This document shows, in pieces, positions 1 to 13,100 of a DNA stretch of 13,100 bases; within the stretch, counting starts at the first letter, position 1; the number at the start of each line of letters is the position of its first letter. The stretch spans positions 1 to 13,100 of the forward strand of contig CAVPXM010000056.1 of NCBI GenBank assembly GCA_963709405.1. The letters are read 5' to 3'. A program made the translations under genes and the position numbers. Source of the DNA: an uncultured Nitrososphaerales archaeon. Lineage in GTDB: Archaea > Thermoproteota > Nitrososphaeria > Nitrososphaerales > Nitrososphaeraceae. Below the pieces are notes generated by a model. The model worked only from the letters and a program-made list of their open reading frames with translations, made no database searches and was not told the DNA's origin.

Positions 1-400
1 CTTGTGGTGGATAAACATGAAAACACCAGGTAATATTTCTTACACCTTCCTTTCTAAACAAATCGATAATGTGCCTATACTCCATTCAAAGCTCCCCTGT
101 ATTATTTCGTTATGATACCATTGGGTAGAGTTTGTTTGCTTAATCGCCTTGGCTGGGGTATATAGACTGAATTTCTGTAATATTTGTGGTTGTAAGGCGT
201 CGATGTAATTGCCTTATTTTTCTATGCGGTTAGATTGTTCAACAGTTAATAATTGTTTATTGAAACTTTCTTGATCTTTGATATTAGCACATATGATAGG
301 ACTCTTCAAATTAAGAAGATAAGACTGCAAGTGACAGGAGAATTATAATTAATATTGAACTGACAACTATCAGTCTTTTCTTGTCAATTAGACCCCGCAT
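1..400 (-). pseudogene. Degraded paralog of the GH26 glycoside hydrolase at 10541-11713, with an internal deletion; runs off the window start
   Basis: Manual minus-strand translation from ATG 400: MRGLIDKKRLIVVSSILIIILLSLAVL, frameshift near 315, then NLKSPIICANIKDQESFNKQLLTVEQSNRIEK*GNYIDALQPQILQKFSLYTPAKAIKQTNSTQWYHNEIIQG. This aligns with NLNLPIVYADDKDHERVKNQL...AAKAIKQINSTQGLHTGIIQG of the intact gene. After a junction at about 80-93 it reads YRHIIDLFRKEGVRNITWCFHV, versus YRHIVNLFREEGATNVKWAFHV. In-frame TAA at 214-216. Confidence 0.9.
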
Positions 401-424
401 CTTCGATAGCGGAGTAACAGAAAT

Positions 425-1081
425 TTATGATTTTGTAGCTCGATCCGCCTTTTAATTGCACCACAACATTGTATACCGCAGTCAAATTATAGGTAGGATA
501 ATAAAGGTAAACATATAGAAGATAATACCCTGAACTAGCTGTGTGTGGCATAACAAAGTTGCCGAAACCTCCTGTGTAATTTCCTAGGTTGATTGGAGTA
601 CCGAATTGTATATCGCTCTCAGGATCAACATCTGCGACATCCGTGTGAGGCGGGGGAAAGGCAGAAGTTATCGGGAACCAGTTTAAGCCGCTTTACTGTA
701 CATTATGTCTGCGTCTGTGCTCGAATCGATAATGAACTTCTCACCGGTCACAAAGGTCGAATTCGCTGTAGATAATTCATAATCTGGATTAGATACCGCG
801 AGAGATTCTGTCGTGTACCTAAATTATTACCTAGAATTATAAATTGTTCATCAAATTGGTGATCTTAGTGTTGAATTATTATGGTCAGATAATATAATGC
901 TTATATCATCTGGAGGGTCTAAAATACTTAGTAGTACTTAAGCGCTGCAGTTGAGATACCCTAGAATTATTCCGACTTGATTTAGCATACAAGTATCGGT
1001 CATTGAAAAGATGTAAGCTTGGACCCACAACAAGAAGCAATTTAGACACATTGGCATAAATATGAAAAATCTCTTTTTCAT
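425..1081 (-). pseudogene. Multiply frameshifted paralog of the 217-aa secreted protein at 6982-7635
   Basis: ATG 1081 (MKKRFFIF...), with TATA-like TTAATATA at 1104-1111. Segments QLQRLST, PPDDISI, FDEQFIILGNN, NPDYELST...GEKFIIDS and PITSAFPPPHTDVADVDPESDIQFGTPINLGNYTGGFGNFVMPHTASSGYYLLYVYLYYPTYNLTAVYN match the intact protein in order across several frames. Probable original TAA at 425-427. Confidence 0.92.
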
Positions 1082-1232
1082 TGAAACTAGTGAGACCTAC
1101 AAGTATATTAATCTGATCAAGTAATGGTGAGTAAAATTATTAAACGAGCACTCACAGTTGATCTAAACTCGTTTGATAACGCTTACCGAATCGGTTTAAA
1201 AGCCAAGAGAATTTTTTTTGACTTTAGACGTC

Positions 1233-1258
1233 CTATTTTTAGTAACTATTTTTAGTAA
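1233..1258. repeat. 13-bp perfect tandem duplication (CTATTTTTAGTAA)x2
   Basis: Read directly from the sequence. Confidence 0.9.
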
Positions 1259-1393
1259 CTCTTATTTTTTTCTATCTTTACTGTTTTTAGTAAAGAATTT
1301 TTTGGAATTTATTATTGCAAATACTATATCTCTGGTTGATAAACACAGCAGTTGGAATACTAAATTAAATAAAATTAATTCGATAATTCATAA

Positions 1394-1413
1394 TCCTGAT
1401 TAGTCCTGATTAG
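1394..1413. repeat. 10-bp perfect tandem duplication (TCCTGATTAG)x2
   Basis: Read directly from the sequence. Confidence 0.9.
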
Positions 1414-1920
1414 ATATGATATTATTATCATGTTTAATTTGAGCTACCTTTTCTATATTTGTTGGCTATAACTTGTCCAAAATATTCAGGTTTTGGATAT
1501 TTTGATATAAACAGTTCATTATGTTTCTTACCTCAGAATATTTTCTTATTATATTAATTTCAGAAGAACTCTGGATAATATTTAACTTGATTTCATTCTT
1601 GCTTTGCTTTATTTTCTCTTATCATAATGGAACGATGACGTTGACATGCTCTATCAATAAATAATTCATGGGTCATTTAAGAGCGAGTCAGTAATAGTCA
1701 CAATTGTTTTGATTATAACTTGGGTTGATATCTTCAAGCGAACCAAAAGACTCATGTATGAAGATGGATTTATTTGCAACTGCAAGAGTGAATCCTTTAG
1801 GTAGATGTTTTATTATCATGCTTCTTGCATTTTTCGAAAGATGGTTTTATCCTCTTTTAATTCATCATTAACAAATTTCATCCTTGATATTTTACGACTG
1901 AAATCCCATCTATGTAAACG
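1400..1920 (-). pseudogene. Possible decayed coding remnants of unknown identity, cut by the IS left end
   Basis: Protein-like stretches such as MIIKHLPKGFTLAVANKSIFIHESFGSLEDINP and EKIKQSKNEIKLNIIQSSSEINIIRKYSEVRNIMNCLYQNIQ, broken by stops. No confident family assignment. Confidence 0.3.
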
Positions 1921-2010
1921 CTCTCTGTTGCACGATTTGCTATGTTATAAGTGATACTTATTTGATATTTGAGCACTTCGGATTTAACTTGCTGATGCTA
2001 TCTTTCTAGT

Positions 2011-2757
2011 ATGATTGACTGGCCTTCACATAATCAATCACCCAGTAAGACGTGGTCAGGTACTCTTGGATTTTGATATACTTGATGGATGTGATCATGA
2101 ATTATCTCAAATGGATCATGGTAAGATTGGTGAACAATATGATCATCCGGATTCATTTATGCAGCTTCTAGGTTATATGAGAGTATATTTCCATCTACCA
2201 TATAGACAGACACACAGGGGTTGTTGCCATAGCACATGCAAGTACCGAAAGGTTCCAGGTATACCACATTATAGTACTATTAGTAGACGCATAAACAGGC
2301 TAGAGATCAAAATCAATGAAAAATTAGGAAATGATATTGTCATTGCCTTAGATAGATATTGTCATTGCCTTAGATAGCACTGGTATTAAAGCAGCTAATC
2401 GTGGAGAATGGATGCGGCATAAATGGCATGTTAGAAAGGGATATCTAAAGATACACTTAGCAGTTGACATCAAGAAGAAAAGAATCCTATCTCTGGAGGT
2501 AACAAGTGAAGAGGTACATGATGGCAGAGTGTTAAATAAGCAAGTGGATAATGCTTCTGCTCGCTGGAGATAATCATGTAAAAGGTGTATTAGCTGATGG
2601 TATGTATTATAGTAATAACAACTTTAGATATCTATCAAGCAACCACATTAAACCTTGTATAAGAAAGATAAGAAGGAATTCAAAGGTGAGACCGACCGAC
2701 TAATTGTCAAGCGAGAAATACGTCTGTAATAAGACAACAGACAAATTTCAAAAGATG
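2011..2757 (+). pseudogene. IS5-family DDE transposase, frameshifted and 3'-truncated
   Basis: Reconstructed segments: MIDWPSHNQS / VRRGQVLLDFD...HLPYRQT...PHYSTISRRINRL...DIVIALDSTGIKAANRGEWMRHKWHVRKGYLKIHLAVD...EVHDG / VLADGMY...QQTNFKR. The first two catalytic Asp motifs (DSTG, ADG) are present; the catalytic Glu region is absent. Confidence 0.93.
2333..2376. repeat. 22-bp perfect tandem duplication (GATATTGTCATTGCCTTAGATA)x2 that frameshifts the transposase
   Basis: Removing one copy restores DIVIALDSTGIK in frame. Confidence 0.95.
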
Positions 2758-2925
2758 TATACTTTTGTGGAAGGCCTATAACGTGGTTAAACCCAGAAAT
2801 ATTTTCTGGATTGCCCAAATCATAGAAGGGTAAATCTTTCAGTAGTTCAAACTCCTGTATGCTCCCGCTATCTAACTGCTGCCTGCATACTTATCTAGCA
2901 GTTTGTTTAAGTTCTGTAGTGTCAT
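2758..2925 (-). pseudogene. N-terminal fragment of a putative terminase-large-subunit-like protein
   Basis: ATG 2925 overlaps the upstream TGA (ATGA). Reads MTLQNLNKLLDKYAG, frameshift, QQLDSGSIQEFELLKDLPFYDLGNPENISGFNHVIGLPQK, then abuts the IS remnant. FNHxIGLPxK is a motif I recall from terminase-like P-loop proteins of Nitrososphaeraceae; the ATPase motifs themselves are not in the window. Confidence 0.5.
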
Positions 2926-3339
2926 CTATCAATACTTCGGTATTTTGAGGCTCTATGATTCTCAACAAATCTGATTGCTCTATCAACCACTGTACCAGAA
3001 GATAGTAAATCAAACTTCATGGCATAACATTCCTTAACTAATGTTAGGGCTTGCATTCTTTCTCTCCTGTCTGAGTCTGAATCTATTGACATGGCCCAAG
3101 CATCTTTCATGATATTGTTCAATCCATCCAGGCAGTTTTCATATTCGGCTGGCAGGTATTCATCGATATACTTCTTGATATTCTCTTTAGCCTTCAGTCT
3201 AAGATATGCCAAGTCCTTTTCAATCAGACCTAATGATACCTGTAGTTCTGCTGAATATCTCTTGAATATAACCTTTGATAGAATATTCTGTTACTTTCTC
3301 TCTACGCCATTGGATTCTATCTACAGTTTTGCTACTCAA
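2922..3339 (-). pseudogene. HTH-domain protein (possibly terminase-small-like), one frameshift near 3255
   Basis: SD-like GAGGTG (3345-3350) precedes TTG 3339. Reads MSSKTVDRIQWRREKVTEYSIKGYIQEI, frameshift, SAELQVSLGLIEKDLAYLRLKAKENIKKYIDEYLPAEYENCLDG..., joining the 96-aa ORF. N-terminal HTH pattern followed by a helical domain. Confidence 0.75.
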
Positions 3340-3352
3340 ATGTACACCTCTG

Positions 3353-3733
3353 TTAATACCTATAGTCGTCGTTATTATCGTTTCTTCTAACTATTGTTCG
3401 GTTATGATCGGATGAGTCTGTTAATGGTATTTCTGACCTGATTATGGTGGCACCTGAGTTAATCAAAAACTGGTCAGAACTAGGTTCTAGGACGTACTTG
3501 GCATACTCATCATAAACGATCATGCCTTTGCCTTTATCCTCATTTATTGTAAATATTAACGGCTGGCCATTATCTTGTTTGTTTACGGCTGCCTTTAGGC
3601 CCATGCCATTGCCACCTGTCGGCTGGCGGGTATTGTTGATATTGGTAACGCCTGTTAAATCTATAACCTTATCATGCTTGTTACTGACATTCAGTCTTTC
3701 CCTTTGCTTCTCTTGTTTATTCCTACGGTACAT
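3353..3733 (-). CDS. Hypothetical protein (126 aa), first gene of the left arm
   Basis: Open frame from ATG. Its stop lies just before the SD of the HTH gene, consistent with an operon. Confidence 0.65.
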   Translation of the reverse strand: MYRRNKQEKQRERLNVSNKHDKVIDLTGVTNINNTRQPTGGNGMGLKAAVNKQDNGQPLIFTINEDKGKGMIVYDEYAKYVLEPSSDQFLINSGATIIRSEIPLTDSSDHNRTIVRRNDNNDDYRY

Positions 3734-3790
3734 TTGATTTGATTCTTCGTAATATTCTAATACAATCGGTGCTTAAAAATATACAAACAA

Positions 3791-4571
3791 ATGGTCATAG
3801 GATTTACCAGATCGAAAGAAGGAGAGCAAGCATATGTCAAGGTAGGACTTAGATATGATGATGAGTTGCAAGGCGAACTATATAGGGATTGGTTACGTGC
3901 AACTTCAGCGGATGGACTATCCAACTACACGAATCATAAGGAAAAGGAAATGAATCAGTTGCAAGTGGTTCAGGTAAATAATCCTGATTATACTGGCGAA
4001 GAAGGTGACAGTATGTATCGATACTTTATTGTATACTCATGGATGCACCGACGTCTTGACCACGCTTGCAATGTCACAAGCAGGTATGTTCCAAACGTTG
4101 GAAAATATCCCATTCCACAGGCCCACTAAAAAAATCACAAACATGGATTTCGGTAAGCAGAAGAGAGAGGCTGGCTACGCTGAGAACATTACTCCAGGTT
4201 ATTCAATCCCTTGGACTAAGGAGAACATTCAGAAGATTCTCAAAGAAGTATCGCTGCCGGTTGATGGCACTCTATCATGTTCTGTGGGGCCAGTCAATGG
4301 TATAACAATCTCTGTTGAAACTCTGCAAGATTTGATGAATGGAACCCCATTTGAAGAGTTGTTACATTTTGGAAGAACTCCAACAGATCATGAACGCAAA
4401 CAATGGATAGAGAAGCATGGAGGTTCAGAAGCAGATAATCGAAGATTAATCGAGTTTGCTAGGAAGAGGGCTGATAGTGATTTGCAAGAGAGACCTGTCA
4501 CAGCAACACAAGTACAAGAGTTGATACGAAGGGAAATCAAGGAAGGCAAACAATCCCAAGATGGGCATTAG
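3791..4571 (+). pseudogene. Hypothetical protein of about 260 aa split by one frameshift near 4123
   Basis: The 112-aa and 188-aa ORFs join as ...GKYPIPQA-TKKITNMDFGK... if one C is removed from GGCCCACT. The stop overlaps the start of the next gene. Confidence 0.65.
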
Positions 4572-6434
4572 ATTCTTAGGCACACCAATCGAGCAGTTCG
4601 ATCGGCTGTGCATAGAGGAAGAGATTGTTAAGATTACAATCTCCTGTTTCAAGAGAGAAGAGATAGGGCATCCTGATGGTAGTACTACTATGGAGGAAGT
4701 ACGAACAGGTGACTGGGGAATGCAGATAAAATCGAGTAAAGACATTCTCCAGTTTGTAGATGACGATGATAATGACAGCCACCCCAACAGTGGTAAAAGT
4801 AAAAATAACAAGGACGAAGAAGCAGTCGAAGCAAAAGAGGTCTTTGTTCGCAAATACAGCACGGACATACCTCTAGCAGAACAGATCAAGATTGGAGGCC
4901 GGGGGAAGTTTCTTCAAATAATAGATGGCAAACCAGTGCTTAATGACTCTATTGACTTGAGCCAGGAAAAAGGGATCATTCTGAAGCCACATCAAAGCAT
5001 CGGTAGCACCCTCCTATCATGGAGTACGAGTATAATGACGTTCACGAGACTGAATATTTCATCGAACTGGCAAAGAGGATGTCTGTAGATGATTTGTATT
5101 TCCTGGTGAAATCCATCTACAAAGATGTGATTGCTACCAATGAGAAGGAGCTCATCGTCTTGCCAGCAACTGACACCGTTATGAGTTTATTCCAGGATCT
5201 CTTTGTCACCACTCATTACCTATTACTTACTGGACCACCTGGCTGAGGAAAGGAGCTATTCTCGTCACATTTAAACTTCTGGGCTATCGTGTCGTATTGG
5301 CAGGAGATATGTCAGGTGCTAACCTTCTGGATCTTCCAGGGTCAGCTGAACGCTGTCAGGTCACCATCGCAGAGGACGAGCTCGACAACATAGGCGACAA
5401 TCCAGACATACAGCGAATCTATAAGATGGGGGTACGAGGATATAGGACTTGTTACCAGAACAGTAGATCCTAGCAGTAGCAATAGAGACATCCGATTCTA
5501 TAATCCTTACTGCATTAAGATATTTGGCAGCGAAAAGAGTTCTGATTCAAAGGAACTTGGAGGGTTTAATGACAGAACTTTCCGATCGGAGGTCAAGAAA
5601 GGAAAAGCAAAGCTACAGATTAAAGAGATTAAAAAACATATGGAACGTCCGTTTGATAAGCAACTTCCAAAGTACAGAAAAATCGTGTCTAGGATAAACT
5701 TCTTACGTAAAGTGTCATTGATATTTAGGCTATTGCATCATGCCGATACGATCGAACAAGTTCCCCTTAACATATTTGCAAGACCACTTGAGCTATGTGG
5801 CCCAGATATCAGAGTCTTCAACTCCGACACACTAGCTGATCCAAATAGAAAGGCGCTACCTGAAGTAATGAATGCTTTGAGTCACTTCCTGAAGAAGAAG
5901 GGTGAACTAGACAAGAAGACGATTGAAGTTGTGATTTATGGCGTACTTAGTGAACTGTTTAAACAGATTGATATAGAAGAAGGGGCACCAGGCACGTCCA
6001 CTATTTCGGACCAAGATTCTTGCAAAAAAGAAATGCATAAGGATGTTTACGGAGTCGAAAAAACAATCTATGTCATACCATATAACGAAATCTGCAGCAG
6101 AGTCATGAATGAGGTTGAAGGTAGTCTAGTCTCGCCTAGGACGTTCGAATCTCCTGATTATGATCGTGTAACACATGATAGTCTACTGGAAAAGTGTAGG
6201 AGGGTATTTGATGGGAGTGATGCGAGTTTAGGTACTGGCAAGAATAAGAAGAAAGCACTTCGATTTGATAAAGATACCAATGTCCACAGAGGATCGAAAA
6301 TTGTGACAGGTCTAAAGAATAATAGAAGCGCAGCAAATGGTTCAACAGATCATAAGAGCAATCAAAATAAGCCGATTAAACAAAATGTGTCACCTACCCC
6401 GACAATTGCAGTAATAGACATTGAAAGGGTCTAA
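4561..6434 (+). pseudogene. P-loop AAA+ ATPase (replication helicase-like), about 620 codons, at least three frameshifts and one in-frame stop
   Basis: Walker A HYLLLTGPPG*GK (5232-5252, TGA at 5244-5246), Walker B VTIAEDELD (about 5360-5386), then IYKMGY, a sensor-like KIFGSE and an arginine-finger-like FNDR. Frameshifts near 5010, 5253 and 5430 (G5 run) link the 175-, 75- and 264-aa ORFs. Confidence 0.85.
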
Positions 6435-6981: not shown

Positions 6982-7635
6982 TTATAGTGTTGTTCCTCTA
7001 TTGCTGCTTGTCACCTGCACTGGTGTGTTATATACTACAGTCATATTGTAGGTTGGATATTGAAGGTACGCATACAGGAGGTAATATCCTGGACTTGCTG
7101 TATGTGGTATGACAAATGTGCCGGAATTACCAGCATAATTTCCAAGAATGAGTGGTGTTGAAAGTGCTAAATCGAATTCAGGATCAACATCTTCTACAGT
7201 TGTATCGGCTGGTGGAAATGGTGAAGTTATCGGAACTAGCAGTACAGCTACTGATCTGTACCTTTCTGTGTCTGGGTCAATAGTTGAATTTATGTTGAAA
7301 TTTTCTCCGACCCTAAGGGTTGGGACAGGTGTGGATAATCCAAAGTCAGGATTCACAATGGCAACACTCTTCGGACTACCGATGCTTTGGTTATTGCCTA
7401 AAAGTATGAACTCTTGATCGAAGGATGCATTTTGGTGATTACCATATAGGAGGCTTACATCATCTGGAAGATAGAGAATATTGTCAGTGCCTAGCCGTTG
7501 TTGCTCTGACAAGCTGTTATCTATCTCTTGCGGTTGACCATAGACAGGTTTACTTTTGAAAAAAGGCACGCCTGTACCTGAGACAACAAACAATGCTAGT
7601 GATACTGCGATGAATACTGTACACACTTTCTTCAT
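6982..7635 (-). CDS. Secreted or surface protein of unknown function (217 aa), probably with a beta-rich C-terminal domain
   Basis: Intact ORF with a Sec-type signal peptide (MKK, hydrophobic core, VYG/Q). Beta-strand-like GTFVIPHTASPGYYLLYAYLQY near the C-terminus. Two diverged paralogs in the window support that it is a real gene. Confidence 0.9.
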   Translation of the reverse strand: MKKVCTVFIAVSLALFVVSGTGVPFFKSKPVYGQPQEIDNSLSEQQRLGTDNILYLPDDVSLLYGNHQNASFDQEFILLGNNQSIGSPKSVAIVNPDFGLSTPVPTLRVGENFNINSTIDPDTERYRSVAVLLVPITSPFPPADTTVEDVDPEFDLALSTPLILGNYAGNSGTFVIPHTASPGYYLLYAYLQYPTYNMTVVYNTPVQVTSSNRGTTL

Positions 7636-7659
7636 ATTACTATAATGAGTTGATACCTA

Positions 7660-7667
7660 TATTTAAA
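7660..7667 (-). promoter_or_regulatory. Archaeal TATA box for a probably leaderless transcript of the 217-aa gene
   Basis: TTTAAATA on the minus strand ending about 25 bp upstream of ATG 7635. The paralog at 1081 has TTAATATA at a similar distance. Confidence 0.6.
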
Positions 7668-8021
7668 GAGAGAGAAGCTAAGTTGTTACTATGCCTGGAG
7701 GCACATCTAACGAAGACACTATGGCTGTTTGGCTGAACAAGTTTTCTTCAACTTATCATATAAATTATTTAATCGGACAAAAGCATAAGGTTTTTTGGAT
7801 TGATATATTTAATACAAATCGAATTAGACGTGAATCGATCACGACGAATATTAATCAAATAGGTTTTATAGATTCACGAATTTCGGGCCTTTTTTATAAA
7901 TTGCTGGTTAGCCTTAGAACCGCACTTCTTAGGTTCGCAAGTTTGCACTGGTTTTATTTTAGTAATCTACATAGAAATCGGTTTATTCTTTTCAGTTAAT
8001 AGTTGAAGTAGCCGCTGGATC

Positions 8022-8095
8022 TTGTGATCAAGTACCACCACCACGTAGAAACCTTGATCACAATGTACCAACGGCCAAAATACCATTGTGATAAA
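8022..8095. promoter_or_regulatory. Three pseudo-palindromic boxes at 32-bp periodicity (putative operator array)
   Basis: TTGTGATCAA (8022), TTGATCACAA (8054), TTGTGATAAA (8086). Boxes 1 and 2 form an 11-bp perfect inverted repeat. Located in the divergent intergenic region. Confidence 0.45.
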
Positions 8096-8552
8096 CATGT
8101 TATTTATCTAAATTAACTATGTTATCTAATGTATAATAGCAAGACTGTTTATGCAATATTGACTGTCCATCATGCAGTCGATCGTTAAATCTAATTCAGT
8201 CGATATGTCAAAAGTAGGTAGGAATTATCCCCTAAGATGACTGAATTCTACAACGGTGGCCTATGTGGTTTAGATAAGTAATTGTTTTAATAAAGCATCT
8301 TGATCGTATCTTAACTAACATTAGTGACGGAACCAAGTTAATTAAGGCTTAATAAAAAAACCTGTTTTCATAATCTTAATTGAATATAAGAACAAACGAT
8401 ATTGACACTTCTCGCAGTAGTGGTGCTGATTTCACCAGTTCTCATCAGAGAAGCAGTTGTAGCAATTCCAATAGAGTAGAGTTTACGGATGATCCTCACA
8501 GCGAAAAAAGAGTACAGTGTCAATCATGACAAAAATTTACTAAGCAATAGAA

Positions 8553-9696
8553 ATGACATTTGCTTTGATAACAGGTACAAGGCCTGAAATAATAAAAATG
8601 ATTCCACTTATGAAATCGCTCGATTCGGAAGGGATTGATTACAAGTTCATCCATACTGGTCAGCATCATGATTTTGAATTATTCCTCAAATTTATTGAAG
8701 ACTTTAATGTTAAAATGCCGGATTATAATATCAATTTAACACCATCTTCTGGATCTATAGAACAACTTTCTGAAATGATATTAAAGATTGGCAGGATTCT
8801 AAAGGAACTCCAGCCATCGTCAGTAATAGTTCAAGGTGACACAAACAGTGTAGTTGCTTCAGCATTTGCTGCCGATAAAATCTAGAATTCCGCTAGTTCA
8901 TGTGGAAGCAGGATTAAGAAGCTATGATTGGAGAACACCTGAAGAGCATAATCGAAGAATAGTAGACCACATGTCAAATGTACTGTTCGCTCCTACTACT
9001 CAATCAGAAAGAAATCTGAGAAATGAGCAAGTTCAAGGAAGGATATTCATGGTAGGAAATACCATTGTAGATGCTGTGGAATTATGTATGCAGTTGATGA
9101 GTACTAAATATTGTTACAATCATAGTGATAAAGAGAGTATCTTAAATAAAATTAACTTAAAAATAGATCCAGCCAAATGTGTACTTTTAACTCTTCATAG
9201 AGAAGAAAATGTAGACAACCGCGATTCTTTAAAACAAATACTAAGCGCATTGGCTGATTCTGGTCTTCATTTTGTCTGTCCTATGCATCCTCGTACTGTC
9301 AAAAGGATTCATGAATTCGGTCTTGAGGATCTTATTTCGACTAGTATTAAGGTAATTGAACCGGTTGGTTATTTTGATTTATTAACACTTCTTAAAATAT
9401 GCAGATTTGTAATTAGCGATTCAGGTGGAATACAAGAAGAAGTGACTTCTCCACATATAAATAAACATGCTCTGATTTTACGTGACTCTACGGAGAGACC
9501 GGAGTCCATAGCATCTGGTCATACAATTATGTGTCCAATAGATTACAATGAGATTAGGATGTCAATTAGAAAGATTGAATTAGGAGAATTTCCAGCAACA
9601 CAAGATGTCTGTCCTTATGGAGATGGAAATTCAGCGCATAAAATAGTCGAAATACTGAAGAGCCCAATGATGCCCATAAAATGCAAAGTCGTATAA
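8553..9696 (+). pseudogene. wecB: UDP-N-acetylglucosamine 2-epimerase (non-hydrolysing), single +1 frameshift near 8874-8880
   Basis: Motifs GTRPEIIK, HTGQH, VQGDT, HVEAGLRS, PEEHNR, GNTIVDA, TLHREEN, DSGGIQEE, RDSTERPE and YGDG. Removing one base in GCCGATAAAATCTAG joins the two ORFs as AFAA(I/D)KSRIPLVHVEAG. Could be a sequencing indel. Confidence 0.95.
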
Positions 9697-9742
9697 CCAA
9701 GCCTATAGAAAATGATATGTTAAGATACGATACTTAAAGTAT

Positions 9743-9910
9743 ATGGATGGATGGATGGATGGATGGATGGATGGATGGATGGATGGATGGATGGATGGAT
9801 GGATGGATGGATGGATGGATGGATGGATGGATGGATGGATGGATGGATGGATGGATGGATGGATGGATGGATGGATGGATGGATGGATGGATGGATGGAT
9901 GGATGGATGG
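9743..9910. repeat. Perfect tetranucleotide microsatellite (ATGG)42, 168 bp
   Basis: Read directly; translates as (MDGW)14 from ATG 9743. Confidence 0.97.
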
Positions 9911-10296
9911 AGAGTTAGTTCGAGTCCCGCCAGTGTTGTCATATTAATTTATGCTATTTTTGCCATGGGAATATTTGTGTTTACAGACATGTTGTTACTG
10001 TATCTAACAAATAGAGTCATTGGAAAAAACACAAAGATAAGATATCTGAAGTATCAGATATAGAAACATATCAAACACCAGATTCTGAATTACCCATAAT
10101 ATTTATTCTTCTACCATCTTATGGAGAAGAAGTAACTCTCCCAGAACTAGTATAGTTAAAAGCATAGTCAACTTCGACTATCCAAAGGATAAGCTAGGCA
10201 TTAGGATATTATAGTTGGCCTGATGATTATCCTACTTTGAAAACTATAATGGCACTACCCAATCAATTCGATCTTGCTGATGGAATTAAAATATAA
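9743..10296 (+). pseudogene. N-terminal remnant of a cellulose-synthase-like family 2 glycosyltransferase
   Basis: TM helix [24 protein letters not shown], then across frameshifts DSELPIIFILLPSYGEEVTLPELV, KSIVNFDYPKDKLGIRI and PDDYPTLKTIMAL. This matches the LPxxxILxPxYxE...DYPxxKL...DD pattern of CESA-like GT2 enzymes. The DxD and QxxRW regions are absent. Confidence 0.85.
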
Positions 10297-10473
10297 TATC
10301 TACGGCCTACAATTATCCCTGATATTAATAAAATTACAGACACATCTTCGTTCCTTCCTTGCGTGCTTTCCACATCCATATATTTTAACTACTTTAATAT
10401 GTTCTTATATTAATTCAATATTGTTGCATTCATTCTCAAATATCTACGAGATTCAAATATGATACGAGGTAAG

Positions 10474-10540
10474 TTGTCGTATCTGTTGCATTAAGATATC
10501 CTATTGAAAAGTATTAGATAGGCCGTCCTTGAAAAGCAAA
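10474..10540 (-). pseudogene. Short degenerate copy of the GH26 nucleophile region, directly after the stop of the intact gene
   Basis: 10474-10493 matches 10726-10745 at 19/20 nt. Broken translation SRTAYLILF..GYLNATDT versus SKTAKLGIFEWGYGNATDT. Confidence 0.6.
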
Positions 10541-11713
10541 TTAGTTATCATAGTATGTCGATATGTATGCAGGAGTGGCAATTCCTTCTCTATATGCAGC
10601 CAGATTCTGCGGACTGGAATTTATTCTTCGATCATAAGGCTCTCCTGGATCTCCAATAACATGTTCGTTCCATACTTGTAATAATTTTATTCTAGGATAT
10701 TTTATTGGAATTTCAGCTAATGTTCTTGCCGTATCTGTTGCATTACCATAGCCCCATTCGAAAATGCCAAGTTTCGCAGTCTTTGAAATAGCTGCAAACT
10801 GAGCGTAGACTTCTTTAAGACTTCCTGCACATCCTCTCTTGTCATAGTCTCCATAACAACTTGTACCAACCCATTCTATGATATCATCTCCAGGGTACCA
10901 TTTGTAACCATTATTGTTGTCTGTAGCATCGACATGAAATGCCCATTTAACATTTGTTGCACCTTCTTCCCTGAAAAGGTTCACAATATGCCTGTATGCC
11001 GCCTTGTAAGGGCCTGGCCCCTCTTTGCTCCATGGAAATGAATTAGTGTTTACCTCTGGCCCGTACTCTATCAACAATTTCGTGCCAAAGCTTTTGGCTG
11101 CTTGTGCGTAGGTTCTTAACTCAGTGTCAAATATTCCTGCTATAATATTTTTATGAGTATATGGTCCTGCATCTGAAAGTTTGTCCCCTTGTCTAATCCA
11201 ATTTTGTATTCTGATAAAAGGAACAGCACCAGTAGTCCTGATGGAAATGCATTTATCAAGAGGAAAATGTATTCCATGAAACCAGTTGTCGCTAAAATAT
11301 GCAACACCTATCTTTTTTCCAGCCAGATTGTTAAAGGCATTTACCAAAGTTGCATTAGCATCTTCATTGCCAGATTCATCAACCATAGCCCCTTGTATTA
11401 TACCAGTATGAAGCCCTTGGGTTGAATTTATTTGCTTAATTGCCTTGGCTGCATTATCTAGACTGGATGCCTGAGATATTTGTATTTGTATTAGTTTTTG
11501 TTTTAAGGTATCATTATAATTATCAAATTTTACTATGTGGTCTGATATGTCTGCGATTATTAATTGATTCTTAACTCTTTCATGATCCTTATCATCAGCA
11601 TATACTATAGGAAGGTTCAAATTCAAATTTAAGATTATAAGTGATAAGATAATCATTGCCATTAAATTAACAGCTATTGCTCTTCTTTTGTGATTAGGGT
11701 CTCTCGTCTTCAA
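10541..11713 (-). CDS. Secreted or membrane-anchored glycoside hydrolase family 26 (beta-mannanase-like), 390 aa
   Basis: N-terminal hydrophobic signal. GAVPFIR, IIAGIFD, GPEVN (putative acid/base E220, 11054-11056), AAYRHIVNLFREEGATNVKWAFH, WYPGDDIIEWVGTSCY and LGIFEWG (putative nucleophile E319, 10757-10759). The true start may be the TTG or a downstream ATG. Confidence 0.88.
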   Translation of the reverse strand: MKTRDPNHKRRAIAVNLMAMIILSLIILNLNLNLPIVYADDKDHERVKNQLIIADISDHIVKFDNYNDTLKQKLIQIQISQASSLDNAAKAIKQINSTQGLHTGIIQGAMVDESGNEDANATLVNAFNNLAGKKIGVAYFSDNWFHGIHFPLDKCISIRTTGAVPFIRIQNWIRQGDKLSDAGPYTHKNIIAGIFDTELRTYAQAAKSFGTKLLIEYGPEVNTNSFPWSKEGPGPYKAAYRHIVNLFREEGATNVKWAFHVDATDNNNGYKWYPGDDIIEWVGTSCYGDYDKRGCAGSLKEVYAQFAAISKTAKLGIFEWGYGNATDTARTLAEIPIKYPRIKLLQVWNEHVIGDPGEPYDRRINSSPQNLAAYREGIATPAYISTYYDN

Positions 11714-12158
11714 TGCAACTATGGCGATAACTAGCTATTTATGACTATTATTTTTAACTGATAAATATCTACAAGTCATAGGATATTCAACAGTTCCAAA
11801 GTCTATTATTATGAACTGCAAATATGGATAGCTAACCTTATTCTCTCCTAGTTTTGTATACTAACATCCAAAAATACTAGGTGTTTTCCTTCAAGGGTAG
11901 ATAGTTTAACTTAAGCTAATAATGACGCTGCTGCTATCAATCACATCTTTATAGTCCTAAACGAACCCGACGAGGCCGTAAACAAATGCAGCAAACGATA
12001 GTGGTTTTAAAGCAGAAGAACTTCAGAATAGCCTAACAGACGATGCAGTAAGAGTAAAATGTCATGTATCTAAAAGAGAAGATGGCTCATCTTCTGATTC
12101 CTATTGTTACACAAGACACTTAAAAAATGACATATTAATATAATCAAGCCGAGAAAAT

Positions 12159-12233
12159 TTATGCTCTTGTTCCTCCATTGCTGCCTTTCAACTGTACTGC
12201 AGTATTGTATACCGCACTGATATTATAAGTAAG
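12159..12233 (-). pseudogene. C-terminal fragment of a third paralog of the 217-aa secreted protein
   Basis: LTYNISAVYNTAVQLKGSNGGTRA* versus PTYNMTVVYNTPVQVTSSNRGTTL* (intact) and PTYNLTAVYNVVVQLKG (left pseudogene). The 3' flank TAATATAATCAAG at 12136-12148 is identical to 6961-6973. Confidence 0.85.
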
Positions 12234-12257
12234 CTGCATTATAATATAGTAATAATT

Positions 12258-12782
12258 TTATTGTTCTATATCACTAGTACGAATAAAGTTCATTGATCCT
12301 CCAGGAACTGAAGTAGTTCTGGCTCTCGTTAACTTCATTGTTGCTTTAGATAGCTCAGATGATGGTATAACAAATGCGTTTCGTGCGGCCTTGATTATAT
12401 CCATAACTTTCAACATATTTTCTACTATTTTTTGTTCGTTACCATCATTGCTATTATTATACAAATCATGGAAATGGTGATGCATATCTTCAGGCCAATA
12501 AAAAGGCTTTTCTATTTGAACCCATTTTCCGGGCTTAAACCAGGAAACACCATTCAGATCACTTCTTTGAATTTCACCAAGTTGAATGGATTCATGTGCA
12601 TTAAACCAATCTTCAATCCTATCATCTACCCATCCGGTGAGCCTACAAAATAAAATATTTACATGTGAGGAATAAGATTCGCCCAGATAATCATATTTAG
12701 GATCATCCCACATCGGATCAAAATCAAATGTATCTCTTTGTTTTAAAACCCCAGTTTTTGGATCTGGTAATATTGTACTCAA
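12258..12782 (-). pseudogene. C-terminal fragment of a PvdP-like (type-3 copper, tyrosinase-fold) protein
   Basis: YDYLGESYSSHVNILFCRLTGWVDDRIEDWFNAHE...GEIQRSDLNGVSWFKPGKWV resembles, from memory, the CuB-region motif SSHVNPVFWxxHGWxDDRIEDWF of PvdP-like proteins. The expected His is Thr here (12636-12638), and the N-terminal part is missing. Confidence 0.7.
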
Positions 12783-13100
12783 TTGCTTTCACTATAGGCT
12801 GTGTCACAAAGAATGGGGAAGCAACTATTTTTCTAAATACCTCGACAGTTTTGTGCGAAGAATCTAATTTGAAGTTTATCATTCCGTTTCGTCCAGGCAC
12901 ACATATAATAGTACAATCATTTCACTCCTCGTTCCAGTACCTTATGGCTTTGATACGTGAATATCTATCACTTGCAATTGATTTTAATGCATCATGGATC
13001 CAAGCAGTCTTATTCCCTTGCGGAGGACCCTCTAGAACACCAAATCCGAAAATGGCAAGTGGTTTTTTAAGAGAGATAGCTCCAAGTTGAGGATATCCGG
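12724..13100 (-). pseudogene. 3' part of another GH26 paralog, with nucleophile Glu replaced by Gly and an in-frame TGA; runs off the window end
   Basis: GYPQLGAISLKKPLAIFGFGVLEGPPQGNKTAWIHDALKSIASDRYSRIKAIRYWNEE*...KLDSSHKTVEVFRKIVASPFFV aligns with YAQFAAISKTAKLGIFEWG...YPRIKLLQVWNE...INSSPQNLAAYREGIATPAYI. GGA at 13045-13047; TGA at 12922-12924. Confidence 0.85.

Follow-up and report, generated by a model that had tools for sequence, protein, structure and literature searches.

The 13,100-nucleotide stretch of DNA analysed here (the window) is an entire contig, C56, of the genome of an uncultured Nitrososphaerales archaeon (G000; 4.83 Mb, 100 contigs) from the Nitrososphaeraceae, a family of soil ammonia-oxidising archaea. 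An earlier reading of the sequence without database searches proposed that the window carries an exopolysaccharide module made of wecB, a membrane glycosyltransferase of family GT2, a secreted glycoside hydrolase of family GH26 and a secreted 217-residue protein. Open reading frames (ORFs) and family matches place all four (the GT2 as a remnant) where that reading had put them. The window is a decayed copy of a glycan cassette that is patchily spread among the Nitrososphaerales and intact in some relatives. It contains the following features:

6982..7635, minus strand: intact gene of a secreted or anchored all-beta protein of 217 aa, with a predicted beta-sandwich similar to lytic polysaccharide monooxygenases (LPMO) and no histidine brace
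8553..9696, plus strand: wecB, a non-hydrolysing UDP-GlcNAc 2-epimerase gene (accessory paralogue), split by an extra base at 8872
9743..9910, plus strand: (ATGG)42 microsatellite in the wecB-GT2 spacer, supplying the ATG of a 106-aa ORF
9921..10321, plus strand: pseudogene remnant of an XagB-like GT2 with the cellulose-synthase (CESA) fold, which keeps the first 130 of 470 aa, has lost its start and its 3' part, and carries four insertions as well as stops
10541..11713, minus strand: intact gene of a secreted GH26 of type A, catalytic E220 and E319
12154..12230, minus strand: 3' fragment of a gene of the 217-aa family
12796..13098, minus strand: 3' half of a chimeric GH26 (type A/B) pseudogene, continuing at the opposite end of the window
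2..315, minus strand: 5' half of the chimeric GH26 pseudogene, outside the coordinates of the earlier reading
453..925, minus strand: copy of the 217-aa gene decayed to a pseudogene; the GH26 pseudogene lies downstream of it

Condition and identity of the genes in the window

The GT2 remnant aligns to residues 2-130 of a 470-aa orthologue (9923-10321) and contains two 5-nt and two 1-nt insertions; the DxD, TED and QxxRW motifs of this enzyme are not in the window, and at about position 9921, where the start codon of the orthologues aligns, the window reads TCG. When independent sequencing runs from four studies (X1, X2, X4 and X5) were compared, contigs from three of them matched the broken gene free of gaps (X1 over 9911-10256, X2 over 10161-10318, X4 over 10099-10158 and 10165-10321). 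Since independent runs show the same breaks, the GT2 of the window is a true pseudogene. The earlier reading had set the start of this gene 46 bp after wecB; a GT2 remnant does follow wecB, but the ATG at that distance (9743) is the first unit of the (ATGG)42 microsatellite and is rejected as the native start. The microsatellite, 168 nt long and frame-keeping, is the sole long ATGG run in the genome; its seed may be native, because the orthologue in locus L028 has an upstream ORF start that reads MDGWG.

The wecB gene, in contrast to the GT2, is probably alive, so that the claim of an inactivated copy holds only in part. Its two pieces both match PF02350, and the extra base at 8872 that separates them is missing in all three runs that bridge the site (X1, X2, X5; X4 has no contig there). 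Without this base, wecB becomes an ORF of 380 aa, like its 79%-identical orthologue. Moreover, this is a noisy assembly: when 29 sequences of housekeeping type were taken from relatives as queries, 27 of them matched, at 26 distinct loci, and seven of these 26 loci are frame-split. Therefore the frameshift is probably an assembly error, and a true wecB pseudogene is unlikely. In the WecB family TIGR00236 (cut-off 210), the orthologue scores 301 and the C-terminal piece from the window alone 197.5. Two other wecB-like genes lie in core regions of G000.

The intact GH26 (390 aa) reaches 31.9 bits with PF02156, against a cut-off of 20.2, and the catalytic pair of glutamates is invariant in an alignment of 55 of its 87 homologues. 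The closest solved structure, both for type A and for type B of this enzyme, is the GH26 domain of Endoglucanase H (CtLic26A; E 2.6e-42), a lichenase; both glutamates are conserved, whereas the histidine that precedes the acid/base glutamate in CtLic26A is replaced in the archaeal proteins. A beta-1,3-xylanase (E 2.5e-15) and mannanases (E 1e-12 or weaker) follow, so that the GH26 lends no support, as a mannanase, to a mannose polymer. Other copies of the GH26 carry CBM32, PKD or Ig domains. Residues 6-102 of the window protein (about 11410-11700) by themselves match long ORFs in genomes G018 and G023 in which the GH26 part is missing, a pattern of matches suggesting that they may be a separate mobile domain.

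The 217-aa protein starts with a hydrophobic segment and matches no Pfam or NCBIfam family; it has 52 close homologues and 33 matches among representatives at 50% identity. Its predicted structure (pLDDT 80) consists of an N-terminal helix and a beta-sandwich, and LPMO or chitin-binding domains occupy the top 16 of 50 rows of a fold search (best Z 9.6, rmsd 3.2-3.4, 136-138 residues aligned), by a modest margin, as the next unrelated row has Z 7.9 and the Foldseek TM values are 0.3-0.43. The profile of the family has no sequence match in the PDB, and the ESM Atlas offered only unnamed archaeal clusters below 0.9. No invariant or near-invariant histidine was found in alignments of 50 and 35 rows and the predicted mature start is glutamine, so that an active LPMO, which requires the histidine brace, is rejected. 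In the fusion protein P0266 (also P0293; length 524 aa), a cluster whose two members come from JGI and ENA, the 217-aa domain forms the C-terminus of a GH26, while the free gene adjoins GH26, CE4, GH5-like or wecB genes. Judging from the fusion and the modelled fold, the protein is likely to be a non-catalytic polysaccharide-binding accessory module; the earlier notion of an accessory or binding subunit thus probably stands, but, because of the fusion, as a partner of the GH26 rather than of the GT2.

The extra copies of the GH26 and of the 217-aa gene that had been noticed in the window exist, but they are pseudogenes and fragments: since the GH26 sequences at either end of the window together make up a single chimeric pseudogene, there is only one intact gene of each kind. 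Positions 1-3981 and 12234-13096 duplicate, at 98-99% identity, the end of another contig of the same genome (C47:105355-110622). Both ends of C56 are continuous in C47, where they lie 154 nt apart, and C56 is therefore either circular or one unit of a repeat that has been collapsed. At 12124-12127, contigs of X1, X4 and X5 continue into a second, diverged GT2 start (with 114 letters between in X4); related strains thus carry another GT2 copy, whole or broken, which faces away from the GH26.

Intact orthologues and their neighbourhoods

What the window has lost can be seen in its relatives. Among the best 81 of 2391 GT2 homologues (46-93% identity), QxxRW, the motif which the sequence-only reading had singled out as a check, and TED are present in all 81, and the DxD pattern [YF]D[AS]ED in 78. 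The nearest intact orthologue (genome G001, 470 aa) aligns with BcsA at each catalytic motif. Several homologues bear the label 'XagB' in JGI names, and it is from this label that their assignment to XagB derives. The next relatives, from Paenibacillus, Cohnella and Bathyarchaeota, add an MshEN domain (PF05157), an architecture described for Sfz2 (PMC8250860). The GT2s of the archaeal clade, in contrast, have 418-483 aa and no PF05157. A tree of 76 rows, built quickly, left unfinished and without a fixed root, places the Nitrososphaerales proteins in a clade of their own (SH-aLRT 95), apart from a mostly bacterial XagB-like clade (100). Public records also hold an orthologue, WP_458719703.1, on a contig of 3.2 Mb that bears the name Candidatus Nitrosocosmicus sp. 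R.

Intact GT2 genes (E<=1e-60) were found, besides the window remnant, in 11 of 238 genomes of the family. The presumptive partners are concentrated in the same genomes: the GH26 is present in 9 of these 11 versus 11 of the 226 others, the 217-aa gene in 9 versus 4, the wecB subtype of the window in 8 versus 6, a GH76-like (alpha/alpha)6 protein in 9 versus 4, and a PMT-like GT-C glycosyltransferase in 6 versus 26 (this last count and the denominators include genome G234, which is flagged as unpublished and on which nothing else here depends), with the qualification that kin genomes are not independent and the counts overstate the co-occurrence. Within 10 kb of the GT2 on the same contig are the GT-C in 6 of the 11 genomes, at a distance of only 12-100 bp, the GH26 in 6, the GH76-like gene in 5, and wecB and the 217-aa gene in 3 each; these are lower bounds because 4 of the 11 contigs are shorter than 8 kb. 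Thus, the expected association of the four genes is strong as co-occurrence, but all four are linked in two of the 11 genomes only (G020 and G023). The best intact example, G023:C10, contains a dehydrogenase, the 217-aa gene, GT-C, GT2, two GH5-like domains, one of them fused to a GH26, the GH76-like gene and wecB; in G001:C89, wecB-GT2-GT-C is opposed by GH26 and GH76-like genes. Metagenomic loci agree, with wecB-GT2 in L112 and TackOD1-GT2-GT-C/dehydrogenase fusion-GH76-like-wecB in L113. A TackOD1 gene is directly upstream of the GT2 in seven loci (L061, L069, L113, L114, L115, L210, L211); in G000 itself, tblastn did not find TackOD1. Neither of the two outcomes that the sequence-only reading had named as fatal to it, homologues that are not syntenic and GT2 orthologues that are non-processive and have no QxxRW, was obtained outright.

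Nevertheless, the four genes are not the core of the system, since the tightest partner of the GT2 is the GT-C, which is absent from the window. In two genomes of another family (found among 401 sampled genomes of the order), the arrangement is ACT-TackOD1-GT2-GT-C, and the 20 and 17 kb examined around these GT2 genes contain no wecB, GH26, 217-aa or GH76-like gene. Distant metagenomic loci (76, derived from the best 80 of 587 matches; 32-40% identity, many of them short) have the GT-C in 10 of 76 and neither wecB nor GH26 in any. A Pfam scan of 84 of the 97 neighbouring ORFs from 26 selected distant loci revealed GH113 in three loci, genes of the mannose-1-phosphate guanylyltransferase/isomerase type in two, and single cases of GH5, GH81, GH114 and BcsB. 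Hence, the conserved core is GT2 plus GT-C, to which part of one family adds the other genes of the earlier reading. The GT-C proteins belong to PF02366/PF13231; they have no solved relative that we could find and no direct sequence link with the GT39 neighbour of the Geobacillus GT2 (E 0.04), and tblastn ties them to neighbours in other GT2 loci.

Some further neighbours were recorded. The GH76-like protein (L030:10850-12073 and orthologues) lacks a hydrophobic N-terminus, and 12 of the 13 genomes that have it also have the wecB subtype. Glucose/sorbosone dehydrogenase genes of the pyrroloquinoline quinone (PQQ) type lie 3' of the GT-C or are fused to it (L113:3266-6256, L142, L069, L021, L023); archaeal loci have them, and so does one distant locus of high GC content. 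A second module (L092:5850-14918 in G206; L025:9370-14367 in G007) combines a distant wecB, a 172-aa gene, GH26 type B and a different GT2, whose best match, under the cut-off, is PgaC/IcaA; in G206, a galactose-oxidase-like gene follows, which recalls cslA-glxA of Streptomyces.

The partial linkage of wecB bears on the narrowest form of what the sequence-only reading had proposed, namely a processive GT2 that uses UDP-N-acetylmannosamine (UDP-ManNAc) made by WecB to build a ManNAc backbone; such a scheme would resemble E. coli NfrB or Listeria Pss. The wecB gene is directly upstream of and co-oriented with the GT2 in the window, G001, contig C60 of G020 and L112, and nearby in G023 and L113; its subtype is enriched in the GT2 genomes, and the presence of the two other wecB-like genes in the core of G000 and of CE4 deacetylases near the cassette fits as well. 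Furthermore, the adjacency of nfrB and wecB has been taken as evidence for the use of UDP-ManNAc (PMC8669469). However, wecB is within 10 kb in only 3 of the 11 genomes, is missing from all 76 distant loci and is not beside the GT2 in the second family; where the XagB-like GT2 is absent, the same subtype also forms a unit with a small soluble GT2 and the GH76-like gene. The archaeal GT2 is no NfrB orthologue either (pairwise E 0.063; 20.9 bits in PRK14716 versus a cut-off of 409; a long separate branch in the tree), and the GH26 is closest to the lichenase domain. We consider a ManNAc backbone improbable. The evidence supports a glycan module; that the four genes are dedicated to a ManNAc- or mannose-containing polymer is a conjecture.

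The DNA around the cassette has its own history. A transposase remnant (1911-2757, PF13737) has many copies genome-wide. The ORFs at 2922-6434 are unassigned; one ends in the Walker-A-like motif LLLTGPPG, and relatives of a 96-aa ORF occur on some ten contigs and, in G004 and G020, close to 217-aa or wecB genes. In G020, the vicinity of the GT2 also includes a PriX-like gene. These observations suggest that 2922-6434 is an integrated mobile element. A non-coding repeat at 7889-8306 (92% alike to C50:19304-19722) has sharp ends in several runs, and a contig of X4 joins 8301 to the GT2 remnant at 10165; possibly, this repeat is a miniature inverted-repeat transposable element that drives deletions. 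A 174-aa ORF (12258-12782), which matches a part of the tyrosinase PvdP (E 2.5e-30, far under the cut-off) and is duplicated in C47, is probably a fragment unrelated to the cassette.

With such surroundings, one may ask whether the adjacency means anything: the GH26, 217-aa, CE4 and GH5 genes could be scavenging or matrix-remodelling genes that gathered with unrelated transferases on mobile, duplicating DNA. The variable gene order and orientation, the many duplicates and pseudogenes, and the transposase remnants and repeated ORFs nearby are all in line with this possibility, and secreted GH5, CBM32 and CE4 proteins of soil ammonia-oxidising archaea have been read as catabolic (PMC11131427). 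Yet, the presence patterns of GT2, GH26, 217-aa, GH76-like and wecB genes overlap across four to five genera, and the GH26 adjoins two different GT2 types, so that we deem a non-functional assemblage quite improbable.

Possible products of the cassette

On our preferred, if tentative, reading, the intact cassette comprises a processive synthase that makes a hexose backbone, a GT-C that decorates it and a GH26 that trims it. Specifically, the XagB-like GT2 would polymerise a beta-linked chain and extrude it, the adjacent GT-C would decorate the chain outside the membrane, and the GH26 with its 217-aa module would trim or release it. The catalytic motifs, the alignment with BcsA, the 'XagB' labels and MshEN-bearing next relatives, the fold matches to BcsA and hyaluronan synthase, the nearby GH26 and GT-C genes and the GH26-217 fusion speak for this reading, as does the absence of any flippase or ABC exporter among the neighbours scanned in GT2 loci. 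For the backbone, a hexose, either glucose or mannose, is most likely, given that GT2-GT-C cores occur where wecB does not; that gene and the cytoplasmic GH76-like protein may then be a later addition, with UDP-ManNAc serving for a branch, a cap or a variant. The TackOD1 protein encoded directly upstream in several lineages might stand in for the control by cyclic di-GMP (c-di-GMP), via MshEN, in the bacterial relatives.

The closest comparison is with the xag genes of Xanthomonas and the sfz genes of iron oxidisers, which are tied to exopolysaccharide in bacteria (PMC4643136, PMC8250860). XagB and Sfz2 belong to the same GT2 family (33-40% identity, 'XagB' labels) with the D, DxD, TED and QxxRW motifs; a GT-C-type gene beside the GT2 and, in many loci, a glycoside hydrolase are present as in the archaeal cassette. 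The archaeal enzymes, in contrast, form their own clade, with neither the MshEN domain nor a BcsB gene, and their loci add TackOD1, wecB, the GH26, the GH76-like protein and the 217-aa module. The NfrB-NfrA-YbcH system of E. coli, which makes the N4 glycan receptor with WecB, likewise links a GT2 with processive motifs to wecB (PMC8669469), but its GT2 is non-orthologous, and the archaeal loci have no MshEN, no outer-membrane pore and a wecB link in only some cases.

A synthase paired with an extracytoplasmic hydrolase is typical also of Streptomyces CslA-GlxA-CslZ-LpmP, where an oxidase and an LPMO join in, and of BcsA-BcsZ, PgaC-PgaB and Listeria Pss. The PQQ-dehydrogenase genes and the LPMO-fold protein of the archaeal loci resemble the Streptomyces set, whereas no NCBIfam cut-off of these systems is reached and the archaeal protein has no histidine brace. 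Of the common traits of synthase-dependent systems, the motif-bearing membrane GT2 is found in the intact orthologues, the window remnant having lost the motifs; the extracytoplasmic hydrolase is matched by the GH26 within 10 kb in 6 of the 11 genomes and not in the two second-family loci; and the c-di-GMP receptor domain is missing from the GT2s of the archaeal clade.

The fold of the GT2 raises a different possibility. In the model of the intact orthologue (pLDDT 92), a single membrane helix at the N-terminus is complemented by about three at the C-terminus, and the top match of the model is PcManGT of Pyrobaculum calidifontis (PDB 6yv7; Z 27.9, 340 residues aligned, rmsd 4.2), an archaeal enzyme with a minimal cellulose-synthase-like fold, followed by BcsA (Z 24.6, 401 residues, rmsd 3.5) and a viral hyaluronan synthase (Z 23.9, 384 residues, rmsd 4.3). 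Because PcManGT is a non-processive transferase with a lipid acceptor, QxxRW does not prove processivity. Accordingly, the GT2 could load mannose or ManNAc onto polyprenyl phosphate, with the GT-C transferring the sugar to surface proteins, lipids or glycans and the GH26 and 217-aa protein remodelling the coat. PcManGT is a sequence match as well (E 1e-6), the membrane helices are few, the GT-C, an enzyme type that needs lipid-linked donors, is the most tightly linked gene, and the second-family core has no hydrolase. On the other hand, the aligned stretch is longer with BcsA and with hyaluronan synthase than with PcManGT, which is only 15% identical to the cassette GT2, about 110 aa shorter and outside the XagB-like group with which the latter clusters by sequence; the recurrence of endo-glycanases (GH26, GH113, GH5) beside the GT2 is in keeping with a polymer; and the XagB/Sfz2 kin of bacteria have links both with exopolysaccharide (PMC4643136) and with BcsB. 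We give the non-processive route somewhat less weight than our preferred reading, and lean slightly towards a processive polymer overall.

Several observations weigh against the processive synthase with its hexose chain. The best fold match is PcManGT; with only about four membrane helices, the export channel is putative; and no NCBIfam synthase cut-off is reached by the GT2. No BcsB- or PgaD-like co-polymerase was found among the Pfam-named neighbours in the archaeal loci scanned (a BcsB gene does adjoin the Geobacillus GT2 homologue). Cassette genes are scattered in G069 and G081, on long contigs, and in G024; the partner of GH26 type B in G007 and G206 is a different GT2; the 217-aa gene stands beside CE4 genes in genomes that lack the XagB-like GT2; and to these are added the inflated co-occurrence counts. 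Finally, genes for carbohydrate-active enzymes (CAZymes) proposed to act in biofilms were not differentially expressed in biofilms of ammonia-oxidising archaea (PMC12448741).

Meaning for the archaeal cell surface

Soil ammonia-oxidising archaea can live as biofilms, and for Nitrosocosmicus a glycocalyx of amino sugars has been proposed in place of an S-layer, the genes and composition being given as unknown (PMC11559005, PMC12448741); the function of TackOD1 is called obscure (PMC5847659). Multiple GT2 and GT4 genes in soil ammonia-oxidising archaea and BcsA-like glycosyltransferase fusions in Methanobacteriaceae are also on record (jointly PMC11559005, PMC12153357, PMC10374906, PMC11131427 and PMC12448741); because of these fusions, cellulose-synthase-like genes in archaea are not new. 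No description of the cassette in archaea was found in the literature searched, where the XagB-type cassette, the TackOD1 link and the 217-aa module all seem undescribed; supplementary CAZyme tables may already list the genes.

In its fullest form, the proposal would be an archaeal synthase-dependent exopolysaccharide machine in its own right, with an XagB-like synthase, control by the zinc-ribbon protein TackOD1 replacing c-di-GMP, a GT-C decorator, ManNAc fed by WecB, and a GH26 with a copper-free LPMO-fold module, making the matrix or glycocalyx of the carrier strains; taken as a whole, it appears doubtful to us. Being patchy (11 of 238 genomes), the cassette is not the universal coat of these archaea, and the copy in the window is dead. 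Still, the cassette names concrete candidate enzymes for the coat or biofilm matrix of ammonia-oxidising archaea. Should the proposal prove true, synthase-type secretion would extend to archaea without c-di-GMP, the TackOD1 domain would gain a candidate target, and a new type of accessory module, folded much like an LPMO, would be defined.

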